Source: an uncultured Planctomycetia bacterium (GTDB lineage Bacteria; Omnitrophota; Gorgyraeia; Duberdicusellales; 4484-171). From it: a stretch of 34,471 nucleotides of DNA. The notes under the pieces were generated by a model. It did no database searches. It was not told the DNA's origin and saw nothing but the letters and a program-made list of their open reading frames with translations. Location of the stretch: positions 1-34,471 of the forward strand of contig CAZNWL010000001.1 in assembly GCA_964577045.1 (NCBI GenBank), in the 5' to 3' direction. The first letter of the stretch is position 1. Every line of letters starts with the position of its first letter. Shown here in pieces: positions 2,267 through 24,569 of this stretch. The position numbers and the translations under genes were made by a program.

Positions 2267-3403
2267 ATGTTCATCCCGCTTCTGGATTTAAAAAAAGAAT
2301 ATTCCTTTTTTAAAAAAGAGATTGAGCGTAATCTCCGAAGGTGTTTTAAAAGCCAGCATTGGATTTTGGGCAAAGAGGTTTCTGATTTCCAAGCCAAGAC
2401 AAGCGCTTACTTAGGCGTAAAATATGCGGTGGGCGTATCTTCCGGGACAGAAGCGCTTATCTTGTCTTTGAACGCTCTGGCTCTTAGAATGAAAGGCCGG
2501 GAATATTTTGACAAGAAAGATGAAATCATCACCACGCCTTTTACCTTTATCGCTACCGCTGAAAGCATTATGCGTTCTGGAGCAACTCCGGTATTCGTGG
2601 ATATTGATCCTGATAGTTATAATATCGACCCTTTAAAAATTAAAAAGGCCATTAATAAAAATACCGTGGGCATTATACCGGTGCACCTTTACGGTTTAGC
2701 CGCTGATTTATCCGGTATCCTTAAGCTAGCCAGGGAGAATAATCTTTTCCTAGTAGAAGATGTGGCTCAAGGGTTTGGCGCATCTTTCCGAAATAAAAAA
2801 TTAGGCAGCTTTGGCGACTGCGGAGCTTTCAGCTTTTTCCCTTCTAAAAATTTAGGGGCTTTTGGCGATGGCGGGCTTATTGCCACCAATAATTCTAAAT
2901 TAGCGGAGTTGTTGAAAATATTGCGTAACCACGGACAGATTAACCAATACGACGCTTCCTATATCGGGTATAATTCGCGCCTGGATTCGATTCAGGCAGC
3001 GATTCTTTTAGCCAAGCTTAAACATGTTGATAAGCTGAATGCATTGAGGAAAAAAATTGCCGCAGAATATAACGCCGCTTTTAAATCTATCCGGAGAATT
3101 AAAACGCCTTTTGTGCCCAGGGGCTGCGGGCACGTTTACCACCTTTACAGCTTAAAAGTTTCCGCAAAAAGAGATAAGCTTCTTAACTATTTGAATTCCA
3201 AAGGGATAAGTTCGCGTGTCTATTACCCAGTTTGCCTGCATAAGATGCGCGCTTTTAAGCAGGCTAAAATATCCGGCAGCCTTAAGGCGAGCGAAGATAC
3301 CGCTAAGCGAGTCTTGAGCCTTCCTATCTATCCTTTCTTGAGCGCAAAGCAAGCCGAATTCGTAATCACAGCGGTCAAAAACTTTTATGAAAAAACAAAA
3401 TAG
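2267..3403 (+). CDS. DegT/DnrJ/EryC1/StrS-family PLP-dependent sugar aminotransferase
   Basis: Typical family layout. The PLP-lysine motif is intact (GAFSFFPSKNLGAFGDGG) and the 378-aa length fits. Confidence 0.8.
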   Translation: MFIPLLDLKKEYSFFKKEIERNLRRCFKSQHWILGKEVSDFQAKTSAYLGVKYAVGVSSGTEALILSLNALALRMKGREYFDKKDEIITTPFTFIATAESIMRSGATPVFVDIDPDSYNIDPLKIKKAINKNTVGIIPVHLYGLAADLSGILKLARENNLFLVEDVAQGFGASFRNKKLGSFGDCGAFSFFPSKNLGAFGDGGLIATNNSKLAELLKILRNHGQINQYDASYIGYNSRLDSIQAAILLAKLKHVDKLNALRKKIAAEYNAAFKSIRRIKTPFVPRGCGHVYHLYSLKVSAKRDKLLNYLNSKGISSRVYYPVCLHKMRAFKQAKISGSLKASEDTAKRVLSLPIYPFLSAKQAEFVITAVKNFYEKTK

Positions 3404-10366: not shown

Positions 10367-11314
10367 ATGGAAAAAACAGCCAGAATTTATATTGCCGGGC
10401 ATTCGGGTTTAATCGGACAGGCCTTGGTGCGCCAATGCAAAGCCAGCGGTTACCATAATCTTTTATTCAGGAGCCATAAGGAGCTGGATCTTAAGCGCGG
10501 GCAAGATGTGGAGGATTTTTTTAAGCAAGAACAGCCCGAATACGTGGTTTTGGCCGCGGCCAGAGTCGGCGGGATTAAGGCCAACTCTAGTTTCCCGGGC
10601 GAATTTATCTATGAAAATTTAGCTATTCAAACCAATGTCATTCATTCAGCTTATTTATGCAAAGTCAAAAAACTTCTCTTTTTCGGGACGGCTTGCAGTT
10701 ATCCCAGAGAGGCCAAACAGCCGCTCAAAGAGGAATATCTGTTCAGCGGAAAATTAGAGCCGACCAATGAGGCTTATGCTGTAGCTAAGCTGGCCGGTAT
10801 GAAGATGATTGAGGCTTACCATAACCAATACGGAATAAATTTTATTTCGGCGCTTTTGACTAATGCTTATGGTTTAGACGACCGTTTTGATTCTCCTGAT
10901 GCGCACGTTATCCCGGCTTTATTGAAAAGGTTTCACCAGGCTAAAGTTTTAAGAGAGCCAATAGTATCTATTTGGGGCTCTGGCCGTCCTCAAAGAGAGT
11001 TCATCTTTGCTGATGATGCTGCCGGAGCAGTAATTTTTTTGATGAATAATTATGACCGCCCAGAAGTGATTAATGTCGGCACCGGACAAAGCACATCGAT
11101 AAAAGAGTTGGCAGAAATAATTAAAACAGTGGTGGGTTATACGGGGGAAGTTAAATTTGACACCTCCAAGCCGGACGGAGCGCCTTGTAAAGTTTTAGAT
11201 GTTTCTAAATTATCCCGCCTTGGCTGGCAGGCAGAAACTTCTTTAAGACAGGGCTTGGAGCAAACTTATAGCTATTATCTTAAACAGTTAGAGGAGGCAG
11301 CGATAGCCAAATGA
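10367..11314 (+). CDS. fcl: GDP-L-fucose synthase (GDP-4-keto-6-deoxymannose 3,5-epimerase/4-reductase)
   Basis: IYIAGHSGLIG, LAAARVGGI.AN, GTACSYP, EPTNEAYAVAK and HVIPALL are typical Fcl/WcaG motifs. It is adjacent to a Gmd-like gene. Confidence 0.8.
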   Translation: MEKTARIYIAGHSGLIGQALVRQCKASGYHNLLFRSHKELDLKRGQDVEDFFKQEQPEYVVLAAARVGGIKANSSFPGEFIYENLAIQTNVIHSAYLCKVKKLLFFGTACSYPREAKQPLKEEYLFSGKLEPTNEAYAVAKLAGMKMIEAYHNQYGINFISALLTNAYGLDDRFDSPDAHVIPALLKRFHQAKVLREPIVSIWGSGRPQREFIFADDAAGAVIFLMNNYDRPEVINVGTGQSTSIKELAEIIKTVVGYTGEVKFDTSKPDGAPCKVLDVSKLSRLGWQAETSLRQGLEQTYSYYLKQLEEAAIAK

Positions 11315-12291
11315 AAGTATTAATTACCGGAATTACCGGGTTTGTGGGCAGCCACTTGGCAGATTATATTTTAGCCGAGCAAAAAGGCACGGAAATTGTA
11401 GGTTTGGTGCGCTGGCGCTCGCCGGCGGATAATGTCCGGCATCTGCAAGGCAAAGTTACACTTTGTTTCGGGGATTTACTGGATTTGCCTTCTTTACGCA
11501 GTTTATTAGCTAAGCACCGGCCAGAAATTATTTTCCACCTGGCTGCCCAAAGCTACGTTGACTTTAGTTTTATCGCGCCGGTAGCTACTCTAGAGGCTAA
11601 TGTGATTGGAACCTGTAACCTTTTAGAGGCAGTTAAAGAGTTAAAATTCAGTTCGGGCTATGACCCAGTAATGCATATTTGTAGCAGTTCGGAAGTTTAT
11701 GGCCAGGTTAAAGAAAACGAAGTCCCTATCACCGAAAATAATCCTTTCCGGCCGGCTTCGCCCTATGCGGTGAGCAAAGTAGCCGAGGATATGCTGGCTG
11801 CGCAATATTGGCTCTCTTGGAAAATCAAAACTATAAGGACGAGGATGTTTACTCACACCGGCCCTCGTCGAGGAGAGTTTTTCGCCGAATCTAATTTTGC
11901 CAAACAGATTGCCGAAATAGAAGCCGGGCTGAAACCCCCGGTGGTCAAGGTCGGTAATTTAAACAGTTTGCGCACCTTTACCGATGTGCGTGATGCAGTC
12001 AGGGCGTATTGGCTTTTAGCCACTAAATGCCCTGCCGGCGAAGTTTACAATATCGGCGGGACAGAAACCATGTTGGTCGGCGAAATGCTGAATAAACTGC
12101 TTAAACTTTCCACACGCAATGATATCAAGATAGAAGTTGACCCGGCGCGATTGCGGCCTTCGGATGTAACTTTACAGATTCCTTCTACGGAGAAATTTCA
12201 TCAAGCCACGGGCTGGAAGCCGGTGATTAAGTTTGAGCAAACCCTTAAGGATTGCCTGGACTACTGGCGCAAATTTTACGGGAGAAGCTGA
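11311..12291 (+). CDS. gmd: GDP-mannose 4,6-dehydratase family enzyme (short Gmd/Rmd type)
   Basis: ITGITGFVGSH, HLAAQSYVD.SF, SSSEVYG, SPYAVSK and FTHTGPRRGE.F match the family. It overlaps the fcl stop (ATGA). Confidence 0.65.
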   Translation: MKVLITGITGFVGSHLADYILAEQKGTEIVGLVRWRSPADNVRHLQGKVTLCFGDLLDLPSLRSLLAKHRPEIIFHLAAQSYVDFSFIAPVATLEANVIGTCNLLEAVKELKFSSGYDPVMHICSSSEVYGQVKENEVPITENNPFRPASPYAVSKVAEDMLAAQYWLSWKIKTIRTRMFTHTGPRRGEFFAESNFAKQIAEIEAGLKPPVVKVGNLNSLRTFTDVRDAVRAYWLLATKCPAGEVYNIGGTETMLVGEMLNKLLKLSTRNDIKIEVDPARLRPSDVTLQIPSTEKFHQATGWKPVIKFEQTLKDCLDYWRKFYGRS

Positions 12292-13280
12292 TGCTGGAAG
12301 AAAATACAGTAACTCTTAAAGAAAAAAGAATTTTAAACCTTAACTTATATAGAAAGCTTTATCTGGCCAGAACGAGCGAGGAAAAAATCATTGAGCATTA
12401 CCCTGCCAATAAGATGAAGACGCCCATGCATATGTCCATGGGTTCAGAAGCTATCGCCTGCGGAGTATGCCAGGCTCTCGCTAAAGAGGACCAGATTTTC
12501 GGCACTTACCGCTCGCATGCTATTTATCTGGCTAAAACCGGAGATATTGACGGTTTTTTCGCTGAAATGTACGGAAAAGACAGCTCAATTATTAAGGGTA
12601 AAGGCGGCTCCATGCATTTGTGCTGCCCGGAATACGGATTCCTGGGGAGTTCAGCCATAGTCGGCAGCGCTATCGCAGTTGCCGTAGGCGCAAGCTTTGC
12701 CAATAAAAGAGCCGAGAATAATAGAATTGTGGCGGTATTTTTCGGTGACGGGGCCACGGACGAAGGCGCTTTTTGGGAAAGCCTAAACCTTGCCTGTTTA
12801 ATGAAACTGCCGATTTTATTTATTTGCGAAGATAACGGTTTGGCTATCCAAACCCGGCCGGCTACGCGCTGCGGTTATAATTCCATTACCGATATTGTTG
12901 CAAAATTTAACTGTAATGTATTTAAAGAGAAGAGCACGGACGCCGAAATTATTTACGAATTGGCTGCTACGGCAATTGAAAAAATGCGTTCTAACCAGAT
13001 GCCCTGCTTTTTGCATTTAAGGTATTACCGTTATTTAGAGCATGTGGGCATAAACAAAGATTTTCATCTGGGATACCGTTCCCAGGAAGAATTTGAAGAG
13101 TGGCTGAAAGCAGACCCGGTAAAAATTCAGAGAGAAAAGCTTCTAGCTTTAGAATACAGCGATGCAGAGTTAAAGAAGCTGGAAAAAGATATTGAAGACA
13201 GGATAAATAAAAGTATAGAGAAAGCGGACAAGGCTCCTTTCTGCTCTGAAGATGAAGCTCATAGAGGAGTATTCGGATGA
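12291..13280 (+). CDS. Thiamine-diphosphate-dependent dehydrogenase E1 alpha-like subunit
   Basis: YRSH, GKGGSMH and the TPP-binding GDGATDEG...ICEDNG motif are present. I prefer the ATG at 12291 over 12252, because its A is the last base of the gmd TGA stop (TGATG overlap). Confidence 0.75.
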   Translation: MLEENTVTLKEKRILNLNLYRKLYLARTSEEKIIEHYPANKMKTPMHMSMGSEAIACGVCQALAKEDQIFGTYRSHAIYLAKTGDIDGFFAEMYGKDSSIIKGKGGSMHLCCPEYGFLGSSAIVGSAIAVAVGASFANKRAENNRIVAVFFGDGATDEGAFWESLNLACLMKLPILFICEDNGLAIQTRPATRCGYNSITDIVAKFNCNVFKEKSTDAEIIYELAATAIEKMRSNQMPCFLHLRYYRYLEHVGINKDFHLGYRSQEEFEEWLKADPVKIQREKLLALEYSDAELKKLEKDIEDRINKSIEKADKAPFCSEDEAHRGVFG

Positions 13281-14314
13281 GGAAGATTACTTATTGCGAA
13301 GCCGTCAAAGAAGCCATGGCCCAGGAGATGGAAAGAGATTCCCGGGTTTTTGTCTACGGCTTGGGCACGCCTGATTTGGGAGTTTTTGGCAGCACTGTGG
13401 GGTTAGAGAAAAGGTTCGGCTCTGCGCGCTGTTTTGATACGCCGATTTCCGAAGACAGCATGGTCGGCTTTGGCCTGGGCGCGGCGATTAACGGCCTGCG
13501 GCCGATTCATGTGCATATCCGTATGGATTTTCTGCTTCTGGCGATGAATCAGCTGGCGAATATGGTTTCCAGCTTCCGTTATTTATCCGGAGGAAAAATC
13601 GATGTGCCTTTGGTGATACGCGCAGTCATCGGAAGGGGCTGGGGCCAGGGCTGCCAGCACAGCAAGAGCGCTTATGCTTCGTTTGCCCATATCCCGGGTT
13701 TAAAATTAGTGATGCCGACTACGCCGCGCGACGCTAAAGGGCTGCTTATTTCAGCTATTCGCGACAATAATCCGGTAATTTGTGTGGAGCACCGCTGGCT
13801 GTATTGGCAGGAAGGCGAAGTGCCCGAGGAGCCTTTTGCTATTCCCATAGGAGAATCAAATGTTTTACACCAGGGAAAAGATATTACCATTATCGCTATT
13901 TCCTGGATGAACGTAGAAGCGCTTAAGGCAGCAGAAATTTTAGCGAAAAGAGGAATCAGCGTGGAGATAGTTGACCCCCGGACAATTTCTCCGTTCAATG
14001 AAGATATAGCGGTTAAATCAGTGGAGAAGACCGGTTATTGTATTGTAGCTGACAATGACTGGCTGCATTGCGGCTTCAGCGCCGAAATAGCGGCGCGGAT
14101 TTCCGAAAAATGTTTTGGCAAATTAAAATATCCGGTGCAGAGAATCGGTTTTGCTCCTACTCCCTGCCCTACAGCCAGGCATTTAGAGAACGAGTTTTAT
14201 CCTAACGCAGCCAAGATTATCCGTGCGGTGGAGAAAATGCTGGATTTAAGCCCTGCGGATTTAGAAGGAGAAGAGTTTTACAGCCACGAAAAGAGGTTCA
14301 AAGGCCCTTTCTAA
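13277..14314 (+). CDS. Thiamine-diphosphate-dependent dehydrogenase E1 beta-like subunit (transketolase-like pyrimidine-binding and C-terminal domains)
   Basis: R.FDTPISE....G.G.GAA..G.RP, the HS/PGLK.V.P...DAKGLL region and a C-terminal transketolase-like domain are present. The start overlaps the alpha subunit stop. Confidence 0.8.
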   Translation: MRKITYCEAVKEAMAQEMERDSRVFVYGLGTPDLGVFGSTVGLEKRFGSARCFDTPISEDSMVGFGLGAAINGLRPIHVHIRMDFLLLAMNQLANMVSSFRYLSGGKIDVPLVIRAVIGRGWGQGCQHSKSAYASFAHIPGLKLVMPTTPRDAKGLLISAIRDNNPVICVEHRWLYWQEGEVPEEPFAIPIGESNVLHQGKDITIIAISWMNVEALKAAEILAKRGISVEIVDPRTISPFNEDIAVKSVEKTGYCIVADNDWLHCGFSAEIAARISEKCFGKLKYPVQRIGFAPTPCPTARHLENEFYPNAAKIIRAVEKMLDLSPADLEGEEFYSHEKRFKGPF

Positions 14315-14326
14315 TTAAAAAAAGCT

Positions 14327-15112
14327 ATGGATTTAGGATTAAAAGGAAAATTTGCTTTAGTCACTGGCGCAAGCCAAGGTATCGGCCGCGCTATTGCTTT
14401 AGCCCTGGCCAAAGAGGGCTGCAATGTCGCTATTTGCGCCCGCCAGCAGGAAAAATTAGAGAGCGTGGTTAAAGAGATAAAGAAAAAAAATGTTTCGGCT
14501 TTAGGATTGCCTTGCGACGTGACGAACCTTTCCGATATTGATAAAACAGTTAAGGCAGCAGCCAATAAATTTAAAACTTTGCATATTCTGGTTAACAATG
14601 CCGGCGGCGGCGGAAGATGGGGCGATGAAGATATCACCAAAACTAAAGACGAAGTCTGGGAAGAAGTTTTCGCCAAAAATGCTTTAGCGGCTGCCCGTTT
14701 TACCGCCAGGGTTTTACCTTATATGCAGAAACAAAAATGGGGCAGAGTAGTTACCAATAGTTCTATAGCCGCCTTGGAAGGTCCGGTCAGGCCTTGGTAT
14801 GGTATGGCTAAATCCGCGGAAATCAGCCTGATGAAAAATCTAGCGATGAAACCTGAACTTTCCGGCTGTGGCATAACTTTTAACACTATTTGCCCGGGCG
14901 CAATTATGGTTCCGGATACGGGCTGGGATTTGGAAAGGAAAAAAAATCCTAAAAAGTTTAAGCAGTGGGCGAAGGCGCATTTTCCTTTAGGCCGGCCGGG
15001 AACGCCCGAAGAAGTTGCAAGTTTAGTTGTTTTTATTTGCTCGGAACAGGCTGGATATTTAAACGGAGCAGCTATTGCCATTGACGGCGCAGAATCCCGA
15101 AGCTACCGATGA
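14327..15112 (+). CDS. Classical short-chain dehydrogenase/reductase (FabG-like)
   Basis: VTGASQGIGRAIA, NNAG, the catalytic YGMAK and a C-terminal G..I..DG motif are present. Confidence 0.8.
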   Translation: MDLGLKGKFALVTGASQGIGRAIALALAKEGCNVAICARQQEKLESVVKEIKKKNVSALGLPCDVTNLSDIDKTVKAAANKFKTLHILVNNAGGGGRWGDEDITKTKDEVWEEVFAKNALAAARFTARVLPYMQKQKWGRVVTNSSIAALEGPVRPWYGMAKSAEISLMKNLAMKPELSGCGITFNTICPGAIMVPDTGWDLERKKNPKKFKQWAKAHFPLGRPGTPEEVASLVVFICSEQAGYLNGAAIAIDGAESRSYR

Positions 15113-16110
15113 TAGAAGATAAAGTTTTAAAAAGTTTTTCCGGCAAAATTTGCCTGGTCACCGGCGGAACCGGATTAATCGGCAGACAGGTGGTGGATAT
15201 TTTAGTTTCTGCCGGGGCCAAGGTGAAAATTGTTTCTCTGGATAAGCTGAAAGTTAATTCTGCGGCCGAACATATCCTGGGCGACCTTTCAGATTTTAGC
15301 TTTTGTAAAACTTTGACTAAAGATATGGATTTTGTTTTTCACGTCGCTGGCATCGGAGCTTCGGTAAAAGCGGCCAAAGCTAAAATTGCCAGCCATTTCG
15401 TGCCGATGTTGATGATGAATACCAATATTCTGGAAGCTTGCCGCTTGAATAAAGTTAAAAAAATAGTCTATACCAGCTCCGTAGGCGCTTATGCTCCGGC
15501 GGAGATTTTTAAAGAGTCAGAGTATAAATTAGCCAGCGAGCCTATGGATTTTGCCGGCTGGGCCAAGCGCATGGCTGAAGCGCAAATCCACGCTTATAAA
15601 ACGGAATACGGCTTAGATAATTTTGCCATTGTGCGGCCTTCTAATGTTTACGGCCCCGGAGACAATTTTCATCCGGAAAATTCCTTGGTCATACCTTCAT
15701 TGATATACCGCATCTACCACAAAGAAGATCCCTTAGTGGTTTGGGGAGACGGCTCGGCAGTGAGAGATTTTGTTTTCAGCCGCGATGCGGCCGAAGGGAT
15801 TATTCTGGCTTTATATTATGGCACCGGCGCAGGATTTGTGAACTTAGGCAGCGGAAAACCCGTATCCATTAAAGAGTTGGTAGAAACATTAAGGTCATTT
15901 ATCGATTTTAACTATGTCTTTGACGCAAAAAAGCCTAAAGGCGCGGATAAAAGAATTATGGATTTAACTAAAGCCAAAGAGCTTATTCACTATGAGCCTT
16001 CTACCAGCTTAAAAGAAGGTTTAAAAAAGACTTGGGAGTGGTTTATCGCTCATCCGGATGAACACACCAAAAAGATGAATTATTTCCAAGAAACTTTGGC
16101 GGCGAAATAA
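15109..16110 (+). CDS. Divergent NAD-dependent epimerase/dehydratase-fold protein (extended SDR)
   Basis: VTGGTGLIG, YTSSVGAY and VRPSNVYGPGDNF are present. By eye, the canonical YxxxK is not obvious; the aligned region reads FAGWAK. Confidence 0.7.
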   Translation: MIEDKVLKSFSGKICLVTGGTGLIGRQVVDILVSAGAKVKIVSLDKLKVNSAAEHILGDLSDFSFCKTLTKDMDFVFHVAGIGASVKAAKAKIASHFVPMLMMNTNILEACRLNKVKKIVYTSSVGAYAPAEIFKESEYKLASEPMDFAGWAKRMAEAQIHAYKTEYGLDNFAIVRPSNVYGPGDNFHPENSLVIPSLIYRIYHKEDPLVVWGDGSAVRDFVFSRDAAEGIILALYYGTGAGFVNLGSGKPVSIKELVETLRSFIDFNYVFDAKKPKGADKRIMDLTKAKELIHYEPSTSLKEGLKKTWEWFIAHPDEHTKKMNYFQETLAAK

Positions 16111-16112
16111 AG

Positions 16113-18083
16113 ATGAATGATAAGAAAATAAAAGTAGGTTTAGTGCAAATCGGCGATAAATTCGGAGAGCAGTATTACCTTCCTTATTCTATCGCCACTT
16201 TGCAGGCTTATGCTCAAAGCTACCTGAAAAACCCGGAGAGTTTTAGTTTTCTCTTACCTATATATAAGCGCTTAAGCCTTAATGAGGCAGTGAGAGAGCT
16301 TCAACCCAGCCAGATTATCTTTTTCAGCGCCTATGTCTGGAATTACGCTTTGAGTTTGGCTATTGCTAAAAAGATTAAACAAAATAATCCGGAAACCATA
16401 ATAGTTTTCGGCGGGCCGCAGATTCCCGAAGAAGTTAAAGCCTTAGAGTTTTTCTTGCGGGAAAACCCCTTTGTGGATTTGACAGTTTACGGAGAAGGGG
16501 AGATCCCGGTTTTAAAGATTTTAGAAAACTTTAAAACTAAAGATTGGAAGAACGTTCCTTCCGTTGGCTTTATCGGCCCCCAGGATAAGTTTAGCTATAA
16601 CCAAAAAATAGAGCGCATTAGCAAGCTCGACCAGATTCCTTCGGCTTATTTAAGCGGAGTTTTTGAGCCTTTGCTTAAGGCTAACCCCAATGAAGAGTGG
16701 TCTGCGCTTTTAGAGACCAACCGCGGCTGCCCGTATGCTTGCAGTTACTGCTATTGGGGGAAAAAAGAGCGCAGTAAAGTTTATCAGTTTGACTGCGAAA
16801 GAGTGTTTAAGGAAATTGACTGGTTCAGCCGCCATAAAATCCAGTTTGTTTTCTGCTGCGACGCTAATTTCGGGCTGTTCAAGCGCGATTTAGATATTGC
16901 TTTGAAAGTTTCCCAGAATAAAAATAAATACGGCTATCCTCAAGGTTTTTCCGTGCAGAATACCAAGAATTCAAGCGCCGATATTTTTAATCTGCAAAAA
17001 GTTTTAACGGAAAATGGCTTACAGCGCGGAGTAAATCTCGCCCTGCAGTCAGTTAATCCCCAGACTTTAAAAAGCATAAACCGCAATAATATCCCGGCGG
17101 CAATGTATAAAGAACTGCAAACTATGTTTTCTAAGGAGAATATCCCGACCTTCAGCGACATTATCATCGGCTTGCCCGAAGAAACTTATGAAAGCTTTAC
17201 CGAGGGTGTTTCCGAGATAATTGCCAGCGGCCAGCATAACCGCATTCAATTTATTAACCTGGCGATTTTAGAAAACTCCCAGATGGCCGAGAAAGCTTAT
17301 CAGGAAAAATATGGTTTAGCGGCCAAAGAAATAAAGAGCATCGCTCATCATACCAGCCTCAATGAGGATTTAGAAGTCAGCGATACGCAAAAGCTGGTGG
17401 TGGCTACCAAAGCTATGCCGGCAAAAGATTGGGTAAGAACGCGGGTATTTTCCTGGATGGTTTCCTTGTTATATTTCAATAAGTTATTGCAGATTCCATT
17501 TTTAGTTTTAAATAAGCTTTCTAATGCGAGCGCTAAAGAGTTGGCCGAGGCTTTTATAGATGAGAAAAAATATCCGATGATTACCCGCGTGGTGGATTTT
17601 TTCAGGGAAAAAGCCAAAGCCATGCAAGCCGGCGGAAATGAATTCGTGGCTGCGCCTGAATACCTGAATATCTGGTGGCCGGCAGACGAATATATGTTTA
17701 TCAAACTTTGCTTGGAAAACTTTGATGAGTTTTATCGGGCTTGCGGCCAGCTGCTGCGTGAGTTTATTGCCGAGAAAAAAATAGAGTTTGCGGACGCGCT
17801 TTTAGTTGAAAGCCTGGCTTTAAATAGAGCTTTGATTAAACTGCCCGGAGAGAATCAGGATTTAGAAATAAACTGCGCTTATAATCTTTATGATTTTTAT
17901 CAAAGCCTTTTAAAAAACGAGGTTTTGCCTTTGAGAAAAGTAAGCTCTAAATATCTTGCGCTACGCAGCCAGAGCCAATGGGATTTAGCCGATTGGTTAA
18001 GAGAAGTGGTCTGGTATGGCACAAAGCGCGGGGCTTACCTTTATGAGTGTAGAGCCAGTAAAATAACAGAAGTGGCGGTTTAA
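16113..18083 (+). CDS. B12-binding-domain radical SAM enzyme (class B), 656 aa with a long C-terminal extension
   Basis: It has an N-terminal Rossmann-like cobalamin-binding-type domain (IIFFSAYVWN...IIVFGGPQ). The CxxxCxxC motif is NRGCPYACSYCYW (Cys codons at 16728-16751). Confidence 0.8.
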   Translation: MNDKKIKVGLVQIGDKFGEQYYLPYSIATLQAYAQSYLKNPESFSFLLPIYKRLSLNEAVRELQPSQIIFFSAYVWNYALSLAIAKKIKQNNPETIIVFGGPQIPEEVKALEFFLRENPFVDLTVYGEGEIPVLKILENFKTKDWKNVPSVGFIGPQDKFSYNQKIERISKLDQIPSAYLSGVFEPLLKANPNEEWSALLETNRGCPYACSYCYWGKKERSKVYQFDCERVFKEIDWFSRHKIQFVFCCDANFGLFKRDLDIALKVSQNKNKYGYPQGFSVQNTKNSSADIFNLQKVLTENGLQRGVNLALQSVNPQTLKSINRNNIPAAMYKELQTMFSKENIPTFSDIIIGLPEETYESFTEGVSEIIASGQHNRIQFINLAILENSQMAEKAYQEKYGLAAKEIKSIAHHTSLNEDLEVSDTQKLVVATKAMPAKDWVRTRVFSWMVSLLYFNKLLQIPFLVLNKLSNASAKELAEAFIDEKKYPMITRVVDFFREKAKAMQAGGNEFVAAPEYLNIWWPADEYMFIKLCLENFDEFYRACGQLLREFIAEKKIEFADALLVESLALNRALIKLPGENQDLEINCAYNLYDFYQSLLKNEVLPLRKVSSKYLALRSQSQWDLADWLREVVWYGTKRGAYLYECRASKITEVAV

Positions 18084-18086
18084 ACT

Positions 18087-19073
18087 ATGGATTTAGCCGG
18101 AAAAAATATTTTGGTTACCGGAGCTGCGGGGATGATGGGAAGCCATGCTTTGCTAGCTCTAAAAGATATGCCGGTGAAAGTGCGGGCAGTGGATTGGCAA
18201 AAAAAGCCGCTAGTGTTTTCTAATAATATCGCGCATTTAGAAGCGGATTTAACCGATGCCAAAGAATGCCAGAAAGCAGTGAGAGGCATGGATTATGTTT
18301 TAAACTTTGCCGCTAAAATTTCGCGCCGGGCAAAAACTTACGACTATTTACTCACTAATTTAAAGATAAACGCGCTGATGCTAGAAGCGGCTTATCAATC
18401 CGGAGTGAAAAAATACCTTTGGCTAAGCAGCAGCGTGGCTTATCCGCCGCAAAATCATCCTTTGAAAGAAGAGGAGATGTTTTTAGCTGACCCGGCGGAT
18501 AATTATTTTGGCATTGGCTGGACTACGCGCTATCTGGAAAACTTATGCCGGATGTATGCCACCAAAGTGAGTAATCCGATGATTACGATTGTGCTTCGGC
18601 CTACGGCGATTTACGGAGAATACGCGGATTTTAACCCGGAAACATCCCATGTTTTACCGGCCTTAATCCGCAAAGTAGTTGAGCGGCAGAGCCCCATAGA
18701 GATTTGGGGAGGCGGCGAGGTGAAAAGGGATTTTGTTTATGCCGGCGACGTGGCCAGAGCCTGCATTTTAGCTTTAGAGAAAACAGATAATTTTAGCGCG
18801 CTGAATATCGGCTTGGGCAAATCATACTCCAGCAAAGAATTATTAGATTCAATTTTAAAAGTTGATGATTATAAGACTGCTAAAGTAGTTTTTGATAAAA
18901 CTAAAGGCAAAAATCTTCATTCCATTGAGGTTGACTGCAGCAAAGCCAAAAAACTTTTAGGCTGGAAGCCCGAAGTTTCGTTGGAAGAAGGCATAAAAAG
19001 AACTATAGCTTGGTATAAGCAAAATAATGAAATTCCAAATCACAAATTCCAAATTACAAATAAATTCCAATGA
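18087..19073 (+). CDS. Divergent NAD-dependent epimerase/dehydratase-fold protein (extended SDR)
   Basis: VTGAAGMMGSH, WLSSSVAYP and LRPTAIYGEY are present. It shares YFGxxWTxxYLExLC with the 20498 paralogue. The last ~13 codons (IPNHKFQITNKFQ) are encoded by the left arm of the palindromic repeat. Confidence 0.7.
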   Translation: MDLAGKNILVTGAAGMMGSHALLALKDMPVKVRAVDWQKKPLVFSNNIAHLEADLTDAKECQKAVRGMDYVLNFAAKISRRAKTYDYLLTNLKINALMLEAAYQSGVKKYLWLSSSVAYPPQNHPLKEEEMFLADPADNYFGIGWTTRYLENLCRMYATKVSNPMITIVLRPTAIYGEYADFNPETSHVLPALIRKVVERQSPIEIWGGGEVKRDFVYAGDVARACILALEKTDNFSALNIGLGKSYSSKELLDSILKVDDYKTAKVVFDKTKGKNLHSIEVDCSKAKKLLGWKPEVSLEEGIKRTIAWYKQNNEIPNHKFQITNKFQ

Positions 19074-19184: not shown

Positions 19185-20495
19185 ATGGTTAAGGTTGGAA
19201 TAATTATACCTAGTTGGCACTATTGGGTGAATCCCTGCCGGATTCAGCCGATATATGAGATGTATTTTGCTACGCTCATTGCAGCGCGCTTTAAAAAAAG
19301 CGAGGTTGAGGTTGACATTATTGACACTCGCGGCATCCGCAAAGACCAGCAGATTTACCATATCCCCGAAAGGGATCTTTACCTCTATTGGATAGCCAAA
19401 ACCGGCGACTATTCCAGAATCGCGGAGCTGGTCAAAGAAATAAAAGCCAAATACCCGCAAACTAAGCACGCTGCCGGCGGAACGCACATTGATATCTTCG
19501 GCGAAAAGTGCTCAAGAGATTTTGACGCGCTGGTAATTGGCCCGGGAGAAGAGTCGTTTAGCGCGATTATCAAGGATGTCCAGAAAGGCAGCCTGAAAAA
19601 ACTCTATCAGTCCGACTATAAAGATGTGCATTATGCGGATTATCCGTTTATCAAGCGGCATTTTTTGCCGGAGGCGGCAATAGTGAACAACCTTTTGTTT
19701 GAAAAATACGGCGCAAATATCAGGGCTACCTGCGTGCTTTTCTCGCGCGGCTGCAGTTTCCGCTGCCGCTACTGTGTTTACAATGTGCCGGGAAAAGTGC
19801 AGATGAGAAGGCCAGAAGCTATCACCGAAGAAATAGAATATTTGAAGCGAGACTATAAAGTAGAAGCGATTAATTTAAAGGATGAGATTTGCATTCCCGT
19901 AACCAGAGATGTAGCTTTACCTTATTTAGAAGCGATTAAGAAAGCCCGCGTTTTGTGGCGCGGCCAAACCACGGTTTTAGGGGTTACCGAAGAAAAAATC
20001 GCTTTGGCTAAGGAGTCAGGGTGCATGGAACTGGCTACTGGCGTAGAAAGCGTGTCGCAGCAGGTTTTGGATATCATTGATAAGAAGATTACCACCGAAG
20101 ACGTGCGCAATTTTATCCGGCTGTGTAAAAAGTATGCTATCAAGGTCAAGATGTGTTTGGTTTTTGGTCTTCCCGGTGAGCCGCAGACTATTGTTGAGGA
20201 TACCAAAAGGTTTATAGAGGAGGCAAAGCCCGATTATATCAGCCTTTCTGGCCTTGACCCTTTACCCGGCTCGGATATTTACGCCAACAGCGCCTATTAT
20301 GGCATCAAAAACATCGACACTAACTGGGAAAAACACGCGCATTTATTATACCGTTTTTCTGATTACGAAGAAGTGGGTTTACCGTTTGAATACGAGAAAG
20401 CCAACAAATGGGGCAAAACCTTCTCCCGTGAGGAGATAATCTCCAACATCCGCCAAACCCAAACCTATTTCCGTGAAAAACAGATGACGTATTAG
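19185..20495 (+). CDS. B12-binding-domain radical SAM enzyme (class B), 436 aa
   Basis: It has an N-terminal B12-binding-like domain. The CxxxCxxC motif is SRGCSFRCRYCVY (Cys codons at 19752-19775). An AAGGAG RBS lies at 19168-19173. Confidence 0.8.
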   Translation: MVKVGIIIPSWHYWVNPCRIQPIYEMYFATLIAARFKKSEVEVDIIDTRGIRKDQQIYHIPERDLYLYWIAKTGDYSRIAELVKEIKAKYPQTKHAAGGTHIDIFGEKCSRDFDALVIGPGEESFSAIIKDVQKGSLKKLYQSDYKDVHYADYPFIKRHFLPEAAIVNNLLFEKYGANIRATCVLFSRGCSFRCRYCVYNVPGKVQMRRPEAITEEIEYLKRDYKVEAINLKDEICIPVTRDVALPYLEAIKKARVLWRGQTTVLGVTEEKIALAKESGCMELATGVESVSQQVLDIIDKKITTEDVRNFIRLCKKYAIKVKMCLVFGLPGEPQTIVEDTKRFIEEAKPDYISLSGLDPLPGSDIYANSAYYGIKNIDTNWEKHAHLLYRFSDYEEVGLPFEYEKANKWGKTFSREEIISNIRQTQTYFREKQMTY

Positions 20496-21466: not shown

Positions 21467-22533
21467 TTATCTCAAGGACTCCATTCAGGATTTCCTTTTT
21501 CGGCGGCGGCACAGATTATCCGGTCTGGTATAAGGAGAATGAAGGCGCGGTGATTTCCGCTTCCATTAACAAATATTGCTATATCACCTGCCGGTATTTG
21601 CCGCCCTTTTTCGGCTATAAATACCGCATTGTTTATTCGCAGAGAGAAGCCGTGTATGAGCTGAACGAGATTAAGCATCACTCGGTGAGAGAGTGCTTGC
21701 GCTTTATGGATTTAGCCAACGGAGTAGAAGTTCATCATGACGGCGATTTGCCGGCGCGCACCGGCCTCGGCTCAAGCTCAAGCTTTACGGTTGGGCTTTT
21801 AAACGCCTTATACGCTTTAAAAGGAAAAATGGTGACCAAAAAACAGCTGGCCATGGATGCGATAAAAGTAGAGCAGGAGATGATTAAGGAAAACGTCGGC
21901 TCGCAAGACCAGACCATTGCCGCTTTTGGCGGGTTTAATAAGATTACTTTCGGCCGCAATTACAACATTGAAGTCCAGCCTATTACTTTGGACTTTGATA
22001 AGTCCACGCATTTTCAAAAGCATTTGATGCTTTTCTTCACCGGATTTTCGCGCACGGCTTCGGAGATTGCCGGGGAGCAGATTAAAGAAACGGCTAATAA
22101 AACTAAAGAGCTGAAAGCGATGCATGCCATGGTTGAGGCGGCCGCGGATATTTTAAACCAGAGCCGCGATAACTTTGACGCCTTTGGCAAACTGCTGAAC
22201 GAAGCCTGGAAGATAAAGCGCAGCTTGACTTCCAAGATTTCCACTCCTTTTGTTGACGAGATTTACGAAACCGCTTTAAGAGCCGGAGCTTCCGGCGGAA
22301 AACTGCTCGGCGCTGGCGGCGGCGGGTTTATTCTGTTTTTCGTTAAGCCAGAGCGCCAGGCTAAAGTAAGAGCAGCTTTGCGCAAACTCCTTTATGTTCC
22401 TTTTGGCTTTGACACTTTAGGCAGCCAGATAATTTACTATGCGCCTGACCATCATACTTGGTGGGGCATGGATAACCAGCTGAAAACAGCCGAACAAGTG
22501 ATACAGGAAGATTCAACTATTACTGAACAATGA
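21463..22533 (+). CDS. GHMP-family sugar kinase (D-glycero-D-manno-heptose 7-phosphate kinase HddA-like)
   Basis: The GHMP ATP-binding motif PARTGLGSSSSFTVGLLNAL and a C-terminal GAGGGGF motif are present. The architecture matches the galactokinase/mevalonate-kinase-related kinases of GDP-heptose pathways. Confidence 0.7.
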   Translation: MIISRTPFRISFFGGGTDYPVWYKENEGAVISASINKYCYITCRYLPPFFGYKYRIVYSQREAVYELNEIKHHSVRECLRFMDLANGVEVHHDGDLPARTGLGSSSSFTVGLLNALYALKGKMVTKKQLAMDAIKVEQEMIKENVGSQDQTIAAFGGFNKITFGRNYNIEVQPITLDFDKSTHFQKHLMLFFTGFSRTASEIAGEQIKETANKTKELKAMHAMVEAAADILNQSRDNFDAFGKLLNEAWKIKRSLTSKISTPFVDEIYETALRAGASGGKLLGAGGGGFILFFVKPERQAKVRAALRKLLYVPFGFDTLGSQIIYYAPDHHTWWGMDNQLKTAEQVIQEDSTITEQ

Positions 22534-23240
22534 TAGCGCCAAAAACAACGGATGCGGTGATTCTTTGCGGGGGCAAGGGCGAGCGCTTGCAATCAGTGGT
22601 AAGCGATAAGCCCAAAGTTTTGGCGGAGGTGAATGGACAGCCGTTTTTAGAAATTTTGGTAGCTAACCTCAAACGTTTCGGCTTTCAGCGTTTTATTTTA
22701 AGCGTGGGCTATAAAAGAGAAGCCATCATTGATTATTTCAAAAACAGAAAGGAGATAGTTTTTTCCGAAGAAAAAACCGCGCTGGGCACGGGCGGCGGCT
22801 TAAAAAAAGCCCGCAGCCTGATTAAAAGCGATACGTTTCTTGCGCTGAACGGCGACTCTTTTTGCGCCTTGGATTTTAACGAGTTTTTCAGCTTTCATCA
22901 GCAGAAAAAATCCCTTTTAAGCATAGTTTTAACTAAAAGCTTGGAAGTTAAAGATTACGGAACCGTTACTTTAGATGATTCGGGAAGGATAAAAAGCTTT
23001 CAGGAGAAGATAGAGGGAAACAGCGTGCGCTTAGTAAATGCCGGCATTTATTTGATGCAAAAGGAGATTTTCAGCCAGATGCCGGAAAAGTCAGCTTTTT
23101 CTCTGGAATACGATTTTTTCCCTAAAGTAAAAAGCAGTTTTGGCTATATCACTTCAGCCAAACTTTATGATATCGGAACGCCAGAACGTTATCAGATATT
23201 TTTGGGGACAGGTCCCACTCGAATAGGCCCAGTAAAATAA
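22530..23240 (+). CDS. Sugar-1-phosphate nucleotidyltransferase (HddC-like guanylyltransferase)
   Basis: The N-terminal ILCGGKGERL...KPK.LAEVNGQPF signature is present and the 236-aa size fits. It is translationally coupled to the GHMP kinase (ATGA). Confidence 0.65.
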   Translation: MIAPKTTDAVILCGGKGERLQSVVSDKPKVLAEVNGQPFLEILVANLKRFGFQRFILSVGYKREAIIDYFKNRKEIVFSEEKTALGTGGGLKKARSLIKSDTFLALNGDSFCALDFNEFFSFHQQKKSLLSIVLTKSLEVKDYGTVTLDDSGRIKSFQEKIEGNSVRLVNAGIYLMQKEIFSQMPEKSAFSLEYDFFPKVKSSFGYITSAKLYDIGTPERYQIFLGTGPTRIGPVK

Positions 23241-23312: not shown

Positions 23313-24569
23313 ATGGCTAAAAAAATTATTGATAACATTAGGTTTATAAAGCGGGACCTGTCCCCAAAAATGAAGATTCCGTTTGGCACGATTACAGTGA
23401 GCGAGAAGTCAAGGCAGCTGATTAACGCGGCTTTGGATGCAAACCGCCTTTCTTCGGGTAAATACGTGCGCGAGTTTGAAGAGAAGTTTGCCGCGCTGGT
23501 CGGGGTAAAAGAAGCCGTGGCAGTGGCCAGCGGCACTGATGCTTTGGCTTTGGCCTTGGCTGTGCTTTATGATTTCGGCGCCAGAAAAAACGATGAAGTA
23601 ATTATTCCGGCTTTGTCTTTTGTGGCTACGGGTAATGCGGTGCTGCAAGCCGGGTTTAAGCCGGTTTTCGTGGATGTGGATTTAAAAACTTTAAACATCA
23701 TCCCGGAAAAAATAGAAGCGGCAATCAGCGCGAAAACTCGGGCTATTCTTCCGGTACATTTGATGGGAAAGCCCGCGGCTATGGAGGCGATAAACCGCAT
23801 CGCTAAAAAGCGCAAGCTCTATGTGATTGAAGACGCGGCTGAAGCCCATGGCGCAGAATATAAAGGTAAGCGCGCCGGAAGCCTGGCTGATATGGGAGCT
23901 TTCAGCCTTTATGTGGCGCATATTATTACTACTGCCGAAGGCGGGATAGTCACTACTGATAATTCTGCATTCGCCGAAATCTTAAGGTCTTTGCGTTCAC
24001 ACGGCCGGGCTTGTAAATGCAGGAGCTGTGTGTTAAATACTGCCTCCAGTTTTTGCGACAAAAGATTCAAGCAGGGGAAAAATAAAGATATCCGCTTTAT
24101 CTTTGAGCGCATTGGTTTTTCCTGCAAAATGAATGAGCTGGAAGCAGCTATCGGCATCGGCAATTTAGACAACTATCAGCAAATTCTGGATAAAAGAAGG
24201 GCGAATTTGCTTTATTTAATCAATAAGTTTAAAGAGTTTCGGCCATATTTAACCACTATCTGCGAAGAGGCCGGCGAAAAAATCGGGCCGCATGCGTTTC
24301 CTTTTATCGTGGGTAAAAAGGCGAAGTTCAGCCGCGAAGAATTAAGCGGATTTTTAGAAAAGAGAGGAGTGGATACCCGCACTTTGTTTTCCTCAATCCC
24401 TACGCAATGCGCGGGATTTAAATTTTTAGGGCATAAGTTGGGGGATTTTCCTAATGCCGAATATATCGGAGAAAACGGCATACATATCGGGGTGCATCAG
24501 GATTTAAATAAGGGGCACATGGAATATTTTATTAACTTGATTCACGAATTTTTAAAAGCCAATGCCTAA
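23313..24569 (+). CDS. DegT-fold PMP-dependent NDP-4-keto-6-deoxy-sugar 3-dehydratase candidate (E1/RfbH/ColD-like)
   Basis: GAFSLYVAHIITTAEGG aligns residue for residue with GAFSFFPSKNLGAFGDGG of the upstream DegT. This places His203 (23919-23921) where the PLP lysine sits. A Cys cluster CKCRSCVLNTASSFCDKRF follows (24012-24056). Confidence 0.6.
   Translation: MAKKIIDNIRFIKRDLSPKMKIPFGTITVSEKSRQLINAALDANRLSSGKYVREFEEKFAALVGVKEAVAVASGTDALALALAVLYDFGARKNDEVIIPALSFVATGNAVLQAGFKPVFVDVDLKTLNIIPEKIEAAISAKTRAILPVHLMGKPAAMEAINRIAKKRKLYVIEDAAEAHGAEYKGKRAGSLADMGAFSLYVAHIITTAEGGIVTTDNSAFAEILRSLRSHGRACKCRSCVLNTASSFCDKRFKQGKNKDIRFIFERIGFSCKMNELEAAIGIGNLDNYQQILDKRRANLLYLINKFKEFRPYLTTICEEAGEKIGPHAFPFIVGKKAKFSREELSGFLEKRGVDTRTLFSSIPTQCAGFKFLGHKLGDFPNAEYIGENGIHIGVHQDLNKGHMEYFINLIHEFLKANA

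Follow-up and report, generated by a model that had tools for sequence, protein, structure and literature searches.

In the stretch of DNA analysed here (the window, 34,471 nucleotides), a pair of E1 alpha- and E1 beta-like genes is read, with moderate confidence, as encoding an E2-independent, alphaKADH2-type ThDP carboligase that acts on a nucleotide sugar in the pathway described below. Most likely, the pair would add a two-carbon branch to a GDP-linked keto-heptose. If this is true, the product is a heptose analogue of yersiniose, made by an alphaKADH2-type rather than a YerE-type enzyme. In published work, sugar branching by alphaKADH2 enzymes is confined to secondary metabolites (actinomycete antibiotic sugars).

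The E1 pair and its operon

The gene calls are collected in Table 1. The start of E1 alpha was taken as the ATG at 12291; a TTG at 12252 marks merely the longest ORF. That the pair is complete, as the earlier note had claimed, was confirmed by the ORFs, by the E1_dh, Transket_pyr and Transketolase_C domains and by the ThDP motif of E1 alpha (GDGATDEG...EDN), which lies in the ThDP/Mg sequence FFGDGATDEG...LFICEDNG. The stop codon of the upstream 4,6-dehydratase overlaps the E1 alpha start (TGATG, with GGGAGAAG shortly 5' of the overlap), and the alpha and beta genes overlap in ATGA. Twelve bases separate the beta gene from that of the classical SDR, whose stop overlaps the ATG of the next gene.

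Table 1. Predicted genes of the operon, with positions in the window.
Positions	Strand	Predicted product	Remarks
10367..11314	+	Fcl-like extended SDR (GDP-keto-sugar epimerase/reductase type)	NF047922 match
11311..12291	+	NDP-sugar 4,6-dehydratase, closest to GDP-D-glycero-D-manno-heptose 4,6-dehydratase	best PDB match 7US5
12291..13280	+	E1 alpha-like ThDP subunit (alphaKADH2 type)	329 aa from ATG; E1_dh 173 bits
13277..14314	+	E1 beta-like subunit	345 aa; Transket_pyr and Transketolase_C
14327..15112	+	Classical SDR ketoreductase, candidate acetyl-branch reducer	261 aa; adh_short_C2 178 bits
15109..16110	+	Fcl-like extended SDR conserved with the module	Epimerase family
16113..18083	+	B12-binding radical SAM enzyme, KedN5-like C-methyltransferase family	NF033712, 252 bits (cut-off 700)
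18087..19073	+	Fcl-like extended SDR	homologues in 14/33 related loci
19185..20495	+	Second B12-binding radical SAM enzyme	homologues in L001 and L009, 55-69% identity
20498..21466	+	Fcl-like extended SDR	homologues in L001 and L013
21463..22533	+	HddA-like GHMP sugar-phosphate kinase	best PDB: heptose-phosphate kinases 3K85, 4USK, 4N3O
22530..23240	+	HddC-like sugar-1-phosphate nucleotidyltransferase	best PDB: HddC 5XHW
23313..24569	+	E1/ColD-type PMP-dependent NDP-4-keto-6-deoxy-sugar 3-dehydratase	best PDB: 3BCX/3BB8 E1 dehydrase, ColD

The two genes upstream had been called gmd and fcl, with the pair translationally coupled to the former. The coupling held, but the dehydratase was rejected as a canonical Gmd (157.5 bits to the Gmd model, cut-off 415). 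Its best solved relative was the Campylobacter GDP-D-glycero-D-manno-heptose 4,6-dehydratase 7US5 (296 bits, 47% identity, with the motif HICSSSEVYG in common), versus 212 bits for Rmd (2PK3) and 136 bits for Gmd. The other gene is indeed Fcl-like, although on NF047922 (GDP-L-fucose synthase) it reached 428 of the required 500 bits.

The FabG-like reductase reported after the pair was recovered as a classical SDR with TGASQGIG, YGMAK and an Arg after beta2; it matched FabG, acetoin-reductase and BudC-type models, above none of their cut-offs. The best NCBIfam models of the kinase and nucleotidyltransferase were HddA (145 bits, cut-off 600) and HddC (155 bits, cut-off 300), respectively. The 3-dehydratase contains the sequence SLYVAH, with His where the Schiff-base Lys is expected, and a Cys-rich CKCRSC...C segment. 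Assignment of this protein as an aminotransferase was rejected on the basis of that replacement and of its closest solved relatives, E1 dehydrase and ColD. A MarR_EPS regulator and a HepA-type ABC exporter place the operon in a surface- or exopolysaccharide context, and AglB/STT3 was found in related loci.

Related loci and the search for E2 and E3

The comparison set consisted of 33 non-redundant loci with an E1 alpha of at least 40% identity. The pair is a member of an extensive, conserved family (E1 alpha homologues 63-78% identical across phyla) seen exclusively within nucleotide-sugar loci, and its arrangement among such genes, as described in the earlier note, recurs in the 33. These loci come from uncultivated phyla of fresh water and groundwater, CPR included. 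A dehydratase or HddA-like kinase was present in 28 of the loci, and a candidate for branch processing (SDR, aldo-keto reductase or DegT-type gene) in 24. Taken singly, a dehydratase homologue occurred in 18 loci, in 10 of them immediately 5' of E1 alpha; an HddA-like kinase in 20 (48-81% identity); and cupin epimerases in 15. A homologue of the classical SDR adjoined the pair in only 7 loci, and an aldo-keto reductase in 9. Homologues of the Fcl-like SDR at 15109-16110 were found in 12 (46-68% identity, mostly 60-68%), and those of the radical SAM enzyme at 16113-18083 were 40-47% identical. In nine of nine 3-dehydratase homologues adjoining E1 pairs elsewhere, His again replaced Lys.

The relatives of E1 alpha are also tied to sugar-activating enzymes because natural fusions exist: NTP_transferase::E1 alpha (P0124, P0178), GHMP::E1 alpha (P0219), B12-rSAM::E1 alpha (P0232) and SDR::E1 alpha (P0149). 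The fusion partners are homologous to genes of the present operon; the Fcl-like gene at 10367-11314, for example, shares 42% identity with the SDR portion of P0149.

The statement that the window holds no E2 or E3 was borne out by two approaches. A domain search of its 29 plus-strand ORFs detected no 2-oxoacid_dh, Biotin_lipoyl or E3-type domain, and a motif scan of the window yielded no E2 or E3 motif. Likewise, no E2 or E3 was found in eight Pfam-annotated related contexts, no E2/E3 motif across ca. 585 kb of close related loci, and neither gene in any of the 33 loci. The same scan did pick up a genuine PDH's lipoyl motif, in locus L071.

The pair shares its fold families, the ThDP/Mg motif and beta Glu59 and His128 with the E1 components of pyruvate, branched-chain 2-oxo acid and acetoin dehydrogenases. 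It differs from them in lacking E2/E3 partners, in reading GDGAxxEG and CEDNG rather than GDGAANQG and CENN, and in its scores, which fall under the curated cut-offs (for E1 alpha, under every PDH E1 alpha cut-off). E1 alpha reached only ca. 116 bits against the best solved E1 alpha and is ca. 34% identical to the alpha subunit of an annotated acetoin:DCPIP oxidoreductase. The beta subunit and G. stearothermophilus PDH E1 beta share ca. 40% identity, but the former bears a conserved 22-residue C-terminal tail, ending ...EEFYSHEKRFKGPF, that the latter does not have. Stand-alone pairs of Azospirillum and Streptomyces also carry a tail ending F-x-G-P-F/Y.

Predicted pathway and alternatives

From the gene content, we infer the following route. 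The HddA-like kinase and HddC-like nucleotidyltransferase would supply GDP-heptose, and the DmhA-like 4,6-dehydratase directly upstream of the pair, which probably makes the keto-sugar acceptor, would convert it to GDP-6-deoxy-4-keto-heptose. The E1/ColD-type 3-dehydratase may then form the 3,6-dideoxy-4-keto derivative. Pyruvate would be decarboxylated by the E1 pair to hydroxyethyl-ThDP, whose addition to the sugar ketone would leave a tertiary alcohol with a C-acetyl branch, and the classical SDR would reduce this acetyl group to 1-hydroxyethyl. After possible further tailoring by the Fcl-like SDRs and B12 radical SAM methylases, the branched sugar would enter a surface polysaccharide or exopolysaccharide. 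For the operon's four Fcl-like SDRs to act, the 4-keto group would have to be unoccupied, which hints either at unbranched routes that compete with this one or at a branch placed on a different carbon.

The earlier note had proposed GDP-4-keto-6-deoxymannose as the acceptor. Since the dehydratase, kinase and nucleotidyltransferase best match the GDP-heptose pathway, this is probably incorrect; the non-canonical Gmd, the HddA/HddC-like genes and the 3-dehydratase together point to GDP-6-deoxy- or 3,6-dideoxy-4-keto-heptose as the likely acceptor. The sugar is a candidate identity only, because the HddA, HddC, Gmd and Fcl cut-offs were missed and the window encodes neither GmhA nor GmhB.

It is rather unlikely that the dehydratase uses GDP-mannose and that a branched 6-deoxyhexose arises by action of the pair on GDP-4-keto-6-deoxymannose, or on the 3-deoxy product that a ColD-type enzyme makes from it. 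Heptose 4,6-dehydratases also take GDP-mannose; the score of the adjacent Fcl-like gene, the fact that ColD is one of the 3-dehydratase's best matches and the second model of the nucleotidyltransferase (mannose-1-phosphate guanylyltransferase, 140 bits versus 155 for HddC) agree with such a route. The dehydratase's preference for the heptose enzyme over Gmd argues against it, as do the conserved HddA-like kinase, which has no role in GDP-mannose synthesis, the SIS/GmhA-like and HAD genes that adjoin the module in loci L006 and L093, and the failure to find ManB or ManC in the window.

Kinase linkage, about as frequent as dehydratase linkage (20 versus 18 loci), would fit action at the sugar-phosphate stage too. 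The pair would then join a 2-oxo-acid-derived unit to a free aldose phosphate, as a DXS- or transketolase-like enzyme, and the resulting unusual sugar phosphate would precede the nucleotide-sugar stage. The GHMP kinase and nucleotidyltransferase would activate that product. This proposal is unlikely: the kinase does sometimes occur without a dehydratase (L014, L016, L023-25, L031-32, L088, L091), a GHMP kinase is fused to E1 alpha in P0219, and L006 and L094 have split transketolases after the pair; however, the start of the pair overlaps the stop of an NDP-sugar dehydratase, a dehydratase is immediately 5' in 10 loci, P0149 joins E1 alpha to an extended SDR of the Fcl-like family, whose members act on NDP-sugars, the adjoining His-type 3-dehydratases require an NDP-4-keto-6-deoxy sugar, and published alphaKADH2 enzymes accept ketones (PMC12247030).

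Transfer of a ThDP-borne acyl group from another donor (e.g. hydroxypyruvate or 2-oxobutyrate) or to another position (e.g. C3 after ketoisomerisation), or mere keto-acid decarboxylation for an O- or N-linked substituent, is very doubtful. The alphaKADH2 enzymes described so far place the branch at C3 or C4 (PMC12247030), YerE-type relatives use C4-C8 donors, and two E1 pairs in L019 and L021 and the added transketolase in L006 and L094 hint at several different transfers; against this, alphaKADH2 enzymes appear to be specialised for pyruvate-derived C2 units (review, PMC12247030), and no aldolase for a longer donor was found in the window.

It is highly improbable that the pair is a true E1 of a 2-oxo acid or acetoin dehydrogenase with E2 and E3 encoded elsewhere, serving acetyl-CoA supply for glycan acetylation or acetoin/pyruvate catabolism: PDH E1 alpha and beta were the best named models, relatives are auto-annotated as pyruvate or acetoin dehydrogenase, and alpha His251 and beta His128, active-site residues that true E1s use, are conserved, but the sub-cut-off scores, the low identity to the acetoin enzyme, the E2/E3 count of zero in 33 loci, the exclusive embedding in sugar operons, the fusions to sugar enzymes and a beta tail that runs past the C-terminus (which in G. 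stearothermophilus E1 presumably helps to bind E2) all oppose it.

Relation to known sugar-branching and heptose pathways

The preferred reading, a carboligase for a GDP-keto-heptose, was compared with the alphaKADH2 enzymes of actinomycete antibiotics (AviB1/B2, AlmDI/DII, TxnB3/B4, KstD7/D8, Pau11/12 and KbDH-alpha/beta), the likeness being one of architecture and description. In both, separate E1 alpha and beta subunits occur without E2/E3, among NDP-sugar genes and adjoining a 4,6-dehydratase, and a processor of the branch ketone follows (an SDR here, an aldo-keto reductase of the Pau7 class in relatives). In vitro, KbDH-alpha/beta joins pyruvate to analogues of deoxy-keto-sugars, and the branch is lost when the aldgamycin or trioxacarcin pathway carries a knock-out; in known cases the next step reduces, methylates or transaminates the branch ketone (PMC12247030, PMC5659172, PMC4753412). 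The pair fits these published enzymes because it lacks E2/E3, follows a 4,6-dehydratase and is succeeded by a ketoreductase; to this extent the C2-branching role put forward earlier is supported, with a different probable acceptor. Unlike the antibiotic systems, the present genes lie in a surface/exopolysaccharide operon rather than a PKS or secondary-metabolite cluster, and the carrier is probably GDP-heptose instead of a dTDP or UDP sugar.

The C. jejuni GDP-6-deoxy- and GDP-3,6-dideoxy-heptose pathways resemble the operon in their dehydratase (7US5), in the kinase and nucleotidyltransferase, in a PLP/PMP 3-dehydratase and Fcl-like reductases and, in the 15 related loci noted above, in cupin epimerases. 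The route to GDP-3,6-dideoxy-4-keto-heptose is proven in C. jejuni (PMC10440746). The inventory in the abstract of PMC10680097 comprises HddA, HddC, a 4,6-dehydratase, a C3-dehydratase, C3/C5 epimerases and C4 reductases; a ThDP enzyme and a B12 radical SAM enzyme, both present here, do not appear in it. The operon also differs in missing the curated HddA/HddC cut-offs and in having no GmhA/GmhB within the window.

The yersiniose pathway (YerE/YerF; also ErwE, MMAR_2332 and MygE) likewise serves a cell-surface glycan and has the logic predicted here: 4,6-dehydratase, E1/ColD-type 3-dehydratase, ThDP-dependent addition at the 4-keto group and NAD(P)H-dependent reduction of the branch. YerE, however, is a single-chain, acetolactate-synthase-like flavoprotein of the decarboxylase superfamily, a different ThDP superfamily from the present pair, and it branches CDP-3,6-dideoxy-4-keto-glucose; in the present operon GDP-heptose is the probable carrier. 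In size, the pair (329 and 345 aa) matches TxnB3/B4 (327 and 345 aa).

The E1-type pair and its operon

The genes for E1 alpha, E1 beta and a classical SDR were found as the earlier note had described them, both the open reading frames and the domains having been checked. The coupling that it had proposed to the upstream gene was borne out as well: the ATG of E1 alpha (12291) overlaps the stop codon of the dehydratase gene as TGATG. This start is preceded by a Shine-Dalgarno-like GGGAGAAG, and the starts of homologous E1 alpha genes agree with it. The alpha/beta junction is an ATGA overlap, and the SDR gene lies 12 bases 3' of that for beta. The pair has the two-subunit E1 architecture of the alphaKADH2 enzymes (ThDP-dependent sugar-branching enzymes that lack E2 and E3, such as AviB and AlmD), and its Pfam families are E1_dh and Transket_pyr. 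The ThDP/Mg motif of E1 alpha is intact (FFGDGATDEG...LFICEDNG), and Glu59 and His128 are retained in E1 beta.

The operon, of at least 29 genes on the + strand, spans the window, and nearly all of its genes are for nucleotide-sugar metabolism (see table). An ATP sulfurylase/APS kinase is encoded inside it, and thus a sulfated polysaccharide product is suggested. No PKS or NRPS genes were found in the window; a MarR_EPS regulator, an ABC exporter and NeuB/CMP-sugar genes were found instead. The window sequence was detected in freshwater metagenome runs, exclusively DNA runs.

Principal features of the window and their coordinates
Feature	Coordinates	Strand	Remarks
UDP-sugar genes and Lys-type DegT aminotransferase		+	first in gene order
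Bifunctional ATP sulfurylase/APS kinase (PAPS synthesis)	3387-5276	+	within glycan operon
MarR_EPS regulator		+	TIGR04176 cut-off exceeded
RmlA and RmlC		+	equivalog cut-offs exceeded by both
RmlB, intein-split	8303-10363	+	TIGR01181 still passed by interrupted protein
RmlB intein	ca. 8678-9769		364 residues
Fcl-like SDR	10367-11314	+	
4,6-Dehydratase	11311-12291	+	
E1 alpha	12291-13280	+	
E1 beta	13277-14314	+	
Classical SDR	14327-15112	+	
Three further Fcl-like SDRs alternating with two B12 radical SAM enzymes	16113-18083 and 19185-20495 (B12 radical SAM)	+	one of the two B12 enzymes KedN5-like
GHMP kinase, then nucleotidyltransferase		+	
Second DegT-family gene	23313-24569	+	E1/ColD-type 3-dehydratase match
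FAD::NeuB fusion	24562-26952	+	796 aa
Two oxidoreductases, then HepA-type ABC exporter		+	
Gene of unknown function	30534-31832	+	432 aa; no Pfam or NCBIfam match
CMP-sugar synthetase-like gene	31817-32617	+	
Window end	32618-34471		ca. 1.85 kb; no convincing ORF, tRNA, Rfam family or repeat

The intein in RmlB is inserted inside the catalytic S|TDEVYG motif (...FVHIS/CYDETT...DFCGN/TDEVYG). Its first residue is Cys and its last two are Gly-Asn, not His-Asn; it contains the LAGLIDADG-like motifs ILGIFIGDG and LFEGLMDSDGS (the latter identified by eye); the predicted spliced extein has 322 aa. In the FAD::NeuB fusion, the FAD-binding domain is amine-oxidase/UDP-galactopyranose-mutase-like, and the other part is a NeuB-type nonulosonic acid synthase that scored 382 bits (cut-off 400). 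Searches of the window for tRNAs, Rfam families and meaningful repeats gave none, and its final ca. 1.5 kb is A+T-rich (G+C 0.35 over 33001-34000).

Gene context of related E1 pairs

The best 120 homologues of E1 alpha are 63-78% identical to it, and their named members belong to Omnitrophota, Planctomycetes, Chloroflexota and Dehalococcoidia. Among the matches listed in species-representative genomes, further lineages were Phycisphaerales, Magnetococcales, Syntrophales, Nitrospira, Gemmatimonadetes, Verrucomicrobia and Proteobacteria, together with the CPR groups Peribacteria, Microgenomates, Levybacteria, Saccharibacteria and Staskawiczbacteria. Synteny was counted over 33 non-redundant loci with an E1 alpha at least 40% identical. 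E1 beta was present in 29 of these, a homologue of the dehydratase in 18 (directly upstream in 10) and an HddA-like kinase in 20; either the dehydratase or the kinase was found in 28. A B12 radical SAM enzyme (16/33), a cupin epimerase (15/33) and a DegT-family gene (9/33) recurred as well. A homologue of the SDR occurred in seven loci and an aldo-keto reductase in nine, with one or the other in 15. The pair belongs to a large family dedicated to sugar loci.

Fusion proteins were sought among 50%-identity representatives, and the fused E1 alpha relatives are 36-51% identical to that of the window. The partners were NTP_transferase (P0124, P0178), GHMP kinase (P0219), an Fcl-like SDR (P0149), B12 radical SAM (P0232), a cytidylyltransferase-like domain (P0199) and a CoA_binding_3 domain (P0251). 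The first three kinds of partner are 31-48% identical to the operon's own nucleotidyltransferase, kinase and Fcl-like gene. Errors in gene calling might explain some of the fusions; the six independent kinds point the same way, tying E1 alpha relatives to sugar enzymes.

Several related loci have additional features. In two of them, a split transketolase pair and an aldo-keto reductase directly follow E1 beta, so that two ThDP systems stand consecutively (L006, 11988-15904; L094, 11994-14885). For miharamycin and amipurimycin, it has been proposed that split transketolases install hydroxyacetyl branches. An AglB/STT3-type oligosaccharyltransferase is encoded a few genes from the module in L006 (2070-4472) and L093 (4686-7055), one of which is from a MAG of Dehalococcoidia; its proximity is a hint that an N-linked protein glycan may be the destination of the sugar. 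Two distinct E1 alpha/beta pairs occupy each of the sugar loci L019 and L021, their alphas being ca. 40-42% and 46-49% identical to that of the window. Between E1 beta and the SDR, L003 (11997-12716; 239 aa, with a homologue in L018) and L093 (12010-12960; 316 aa) have a gene without a Pfam match, unlike the window, and gaps of similar size suggest that L012 and L030 carry the same extra gene.

The acceptor sugar and the proposed reaction

The upstream gene had been called gmd in the earlier note. This name was not upheld: the product scored 157.5 against the TIGR01472 cut-off of 415, and its closest solved relative is the GDP-D-glycero-D-manno-heptose 4,6-dehydratase of C. jejuni (7US5; 47% identity, 296 bits). 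It scored 212 bits against Rmd and 136 bits against Gmd. The best solved matches of the kinase were heptose-phosphate kinases and that of the nucleotidyltransferase was HddC; the curated HddA and HddC cut-offs were missed. The window encodes neither GmhA nor GmhB; SIS and HAD genes are present in the related loci L006 and L093.

The product of the second DegT-family gene best matched the E1 dehydrase and ColD. It has His at the position of the Schiff-base Lys of DegT aminotransferases (SLYVAH, aligned to SFYPAH of the E1 dehydrase) and a Cys-rich segment resembling that enzyme's. The His was also found in 9/9 homologues next to E1 pairs of other loci. DegT genes beside E1 pairs were considered as branch-ketone transaminases and rejected, because in all of them His stands where the catalytic Lys would be. 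In C. jejuni, GDP-3,6-dideoxy-4-keto-heptose is formed by the successive action of a 4,6-dehydratase and a PLP-dependent C3-dehydratase (PMC10440746; PMC10680097). Among GDP-heptoses, this compound corresponds to CDP-3,6-dideoxy-4-keto-glucose, which serves YerE as acceptor when yersiniose is made (PMC9306805).

The known alphaKADH2 enzymes were the subject of a 2025 review (PMC12247030). Their role in branching has feeding and knock-out evidence for aldgamycin and is proposed for kosinostatin, avilamycin, paulomycin and trioxacarcin; in vitro, KbDH-alpha/beta coupled pyruvate, its sole donor, to ketones that included deoxy-keto-sugar analogues (PMC12247030). The branches are C2 units at C3 or C4, and the branch ketone is later reduced, methylated, oxidised or transaminated (PMC12247030). 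Deletion of txnB4 abolished the branched octose (PMC5659172), and the aldo-keto reductase Pau7 reduces the acetyl branch of paulomycose (PMC4753412). Like these enzymes, the pair sits among NDP-sugar genes beside a 4,6-dehydratase that would make a keto-sugar (as seen in the gene overlap, the synteny and the fusions) and has no cognate E2/E3 in its cluster, the comparison being one of architecture and gene context.

The best reading is that the pair is an alphaKADH2-type carboligase acting on a keto-heptose nucleotide, every chemical step of which we infer. The adjacent dehydratase would supply the acceptor, possibly followed by 3-deoxygenation; the pair would add an acetyl unit from pyruvate, and the SDR would then reduce the branch. 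Candidates for tailoring of the branch ketone near the pair are this SDR and the B12 radical SAM enzymes. The latter may C-methylate the sugar or its branch, and with the Fcl-like SDRs would tailor the product further.

Among the main rivals is a hexose acceptor, GDP-4-keto-6-deoxymannose, as the earlier note had proposed; it is probably not the substrate, since the dehydratase, kinase and nucleotidyltransferase are all nearest to heptose enzymes. Further rivals are that the pair acts at the sugar-phosphate stage, or that its donor, or the position it attacks, is a different one. On the keto-heptose nucleotide reading, we consider it possible, if rather doubtful as a whole, that the module makes GDP-activated 3,6-dideoxyheptoses with an acetyl or hydroxyethyl branch at C4 and C-methylation by B12 radical SAM enzymes. 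Such an undescribed class ("hepto-yersiniose") would occur widely among the surface glycans of uncultivated phyla (CPR, Omnitrophota, Chloroflexota, Nitrospira, Planctomycetota) and, in some lineages, attached to protein by the AglB/STT3 oligosaccharyltransferase. Erwiniose and caryophyllose were considered as heptose-derived products of such a module and rejected, since the published work accounts for them by YerE-type enzymes that add long keto-acid donors to CDP-3,6-dideoxy-4-keto-glucose.

All of the ca. 120 known alphaKADH2 gene clusters are assigned to secondary metabolites, and the review places E1-type branching there only, giving that of lipopolysaccharide sugars to YerE-like enzymes (PMC12247030). 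These have a single-chain TPP_enzyme_N/M/C (acetolactate-synthase-like) fold, in contrast to the two Pfam families of the pair. Unlike all described alphaKADH2 members, the pair lies outside any secondary-metabolite cluster; it differs from them in context, in host range and in its probable carrier nucleotide and sugar. The locus and its relatives suggest that a placement in secondary metabolism alone is too narrow. E1-type branching appears to be common in cell-surface glycan loci of many phyla, tiny-genome candidate phyla included, and an E1-type pair appears to act on GDP-heptose chemistry, in which, to our knowledge, no step has been assigned to C-C branching. Should this be confirmed, it would add a reaction to the GDP-heptose toolkit, predict undescribed branched higher sugars for environmental bacteria, and correct the frequent misannotation of such MAG genes as "pyruvate/acetoin dehydrogenase E1". 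It would also open up a large pool of ketone-accepting ThDP carboligases, which make chiral tertiary alcohols and are sought-after biocatalysts.

Dehydrogenase E1 components and more distant pairs

The curated cut-offs for PDH, BCKDH and acetoin dehydrogenase E1 were missed by alpha (248 vs 394, 142 vs 411) and by beta (300 vs 321, 286 vs 454), and every curated PDH E1 cut-off exceeds the scores of both subunits. The best solved match of E1 alpha was human PDH, at only 116 bits; E1 beta is 40% identical to G. stearothermophilus PDH E1 beta. As the earlier note had stated, the window encodes no E2 or E3, with zero such domains among its ORFs. No E2/E3 families were present in eight Pfam-annotated related contexts, and a motif scan of 585 kb of related loci, which picked up the lipoyl motif of a genuine PDH in L071, detected neither an E3 disulphide nor an E2 catalytic motif. 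With both subunits below the PDH E1 cut-offs and partners found neither in the window nor in related loci, a true dehydrogenase E1 is the least likely reading.

E1 beta ends in a 22-residue tail (...EEFYSHEKRFKGPF) that is nearly invariant in the family and missing from G. stearothermophilus PDH E1 beta. In PDH E1 beta, the free C-terminus contributes to the site where E2 binds; if this holds, the tail would change that surface. Tails ending in F-x-G-P-F/Y also occur in stand-alone pairs from Azospirillum and Streptomyces.

Searches with the window's E1 alpha, a profile of G+C-rich relatives and one such relative (P0153) returned environmental proteins only. Near more distant E1 pairs (27-36% identity; Alphaproteobacteria, Nonomuraea, Microbispora), tblastn detected no sugar genes, and these pairs were excluded as belonging to other families; some lie in polyketide-type contexts. 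As sugar references, the pairs of Kitasatospora (L069) and S. griseofuscus (L089) were rejected for their ketosynthase, ACP or condensation-domain contexts, and that of S. albogriseolus (L090) for its lack of nearby sugar genes. A related gene set occurs in the cultured Azospirillum thermophilum (plasmid NZ_CP029359, 71200-100126), comprising E1 alpha (40% identical), E1 beta (47%), a His-type DegT, an SDR and, ca. 8 kb downstream, an HddA-like kinase (54%); its neighbours are rfaE1 and large surface-protein genes.
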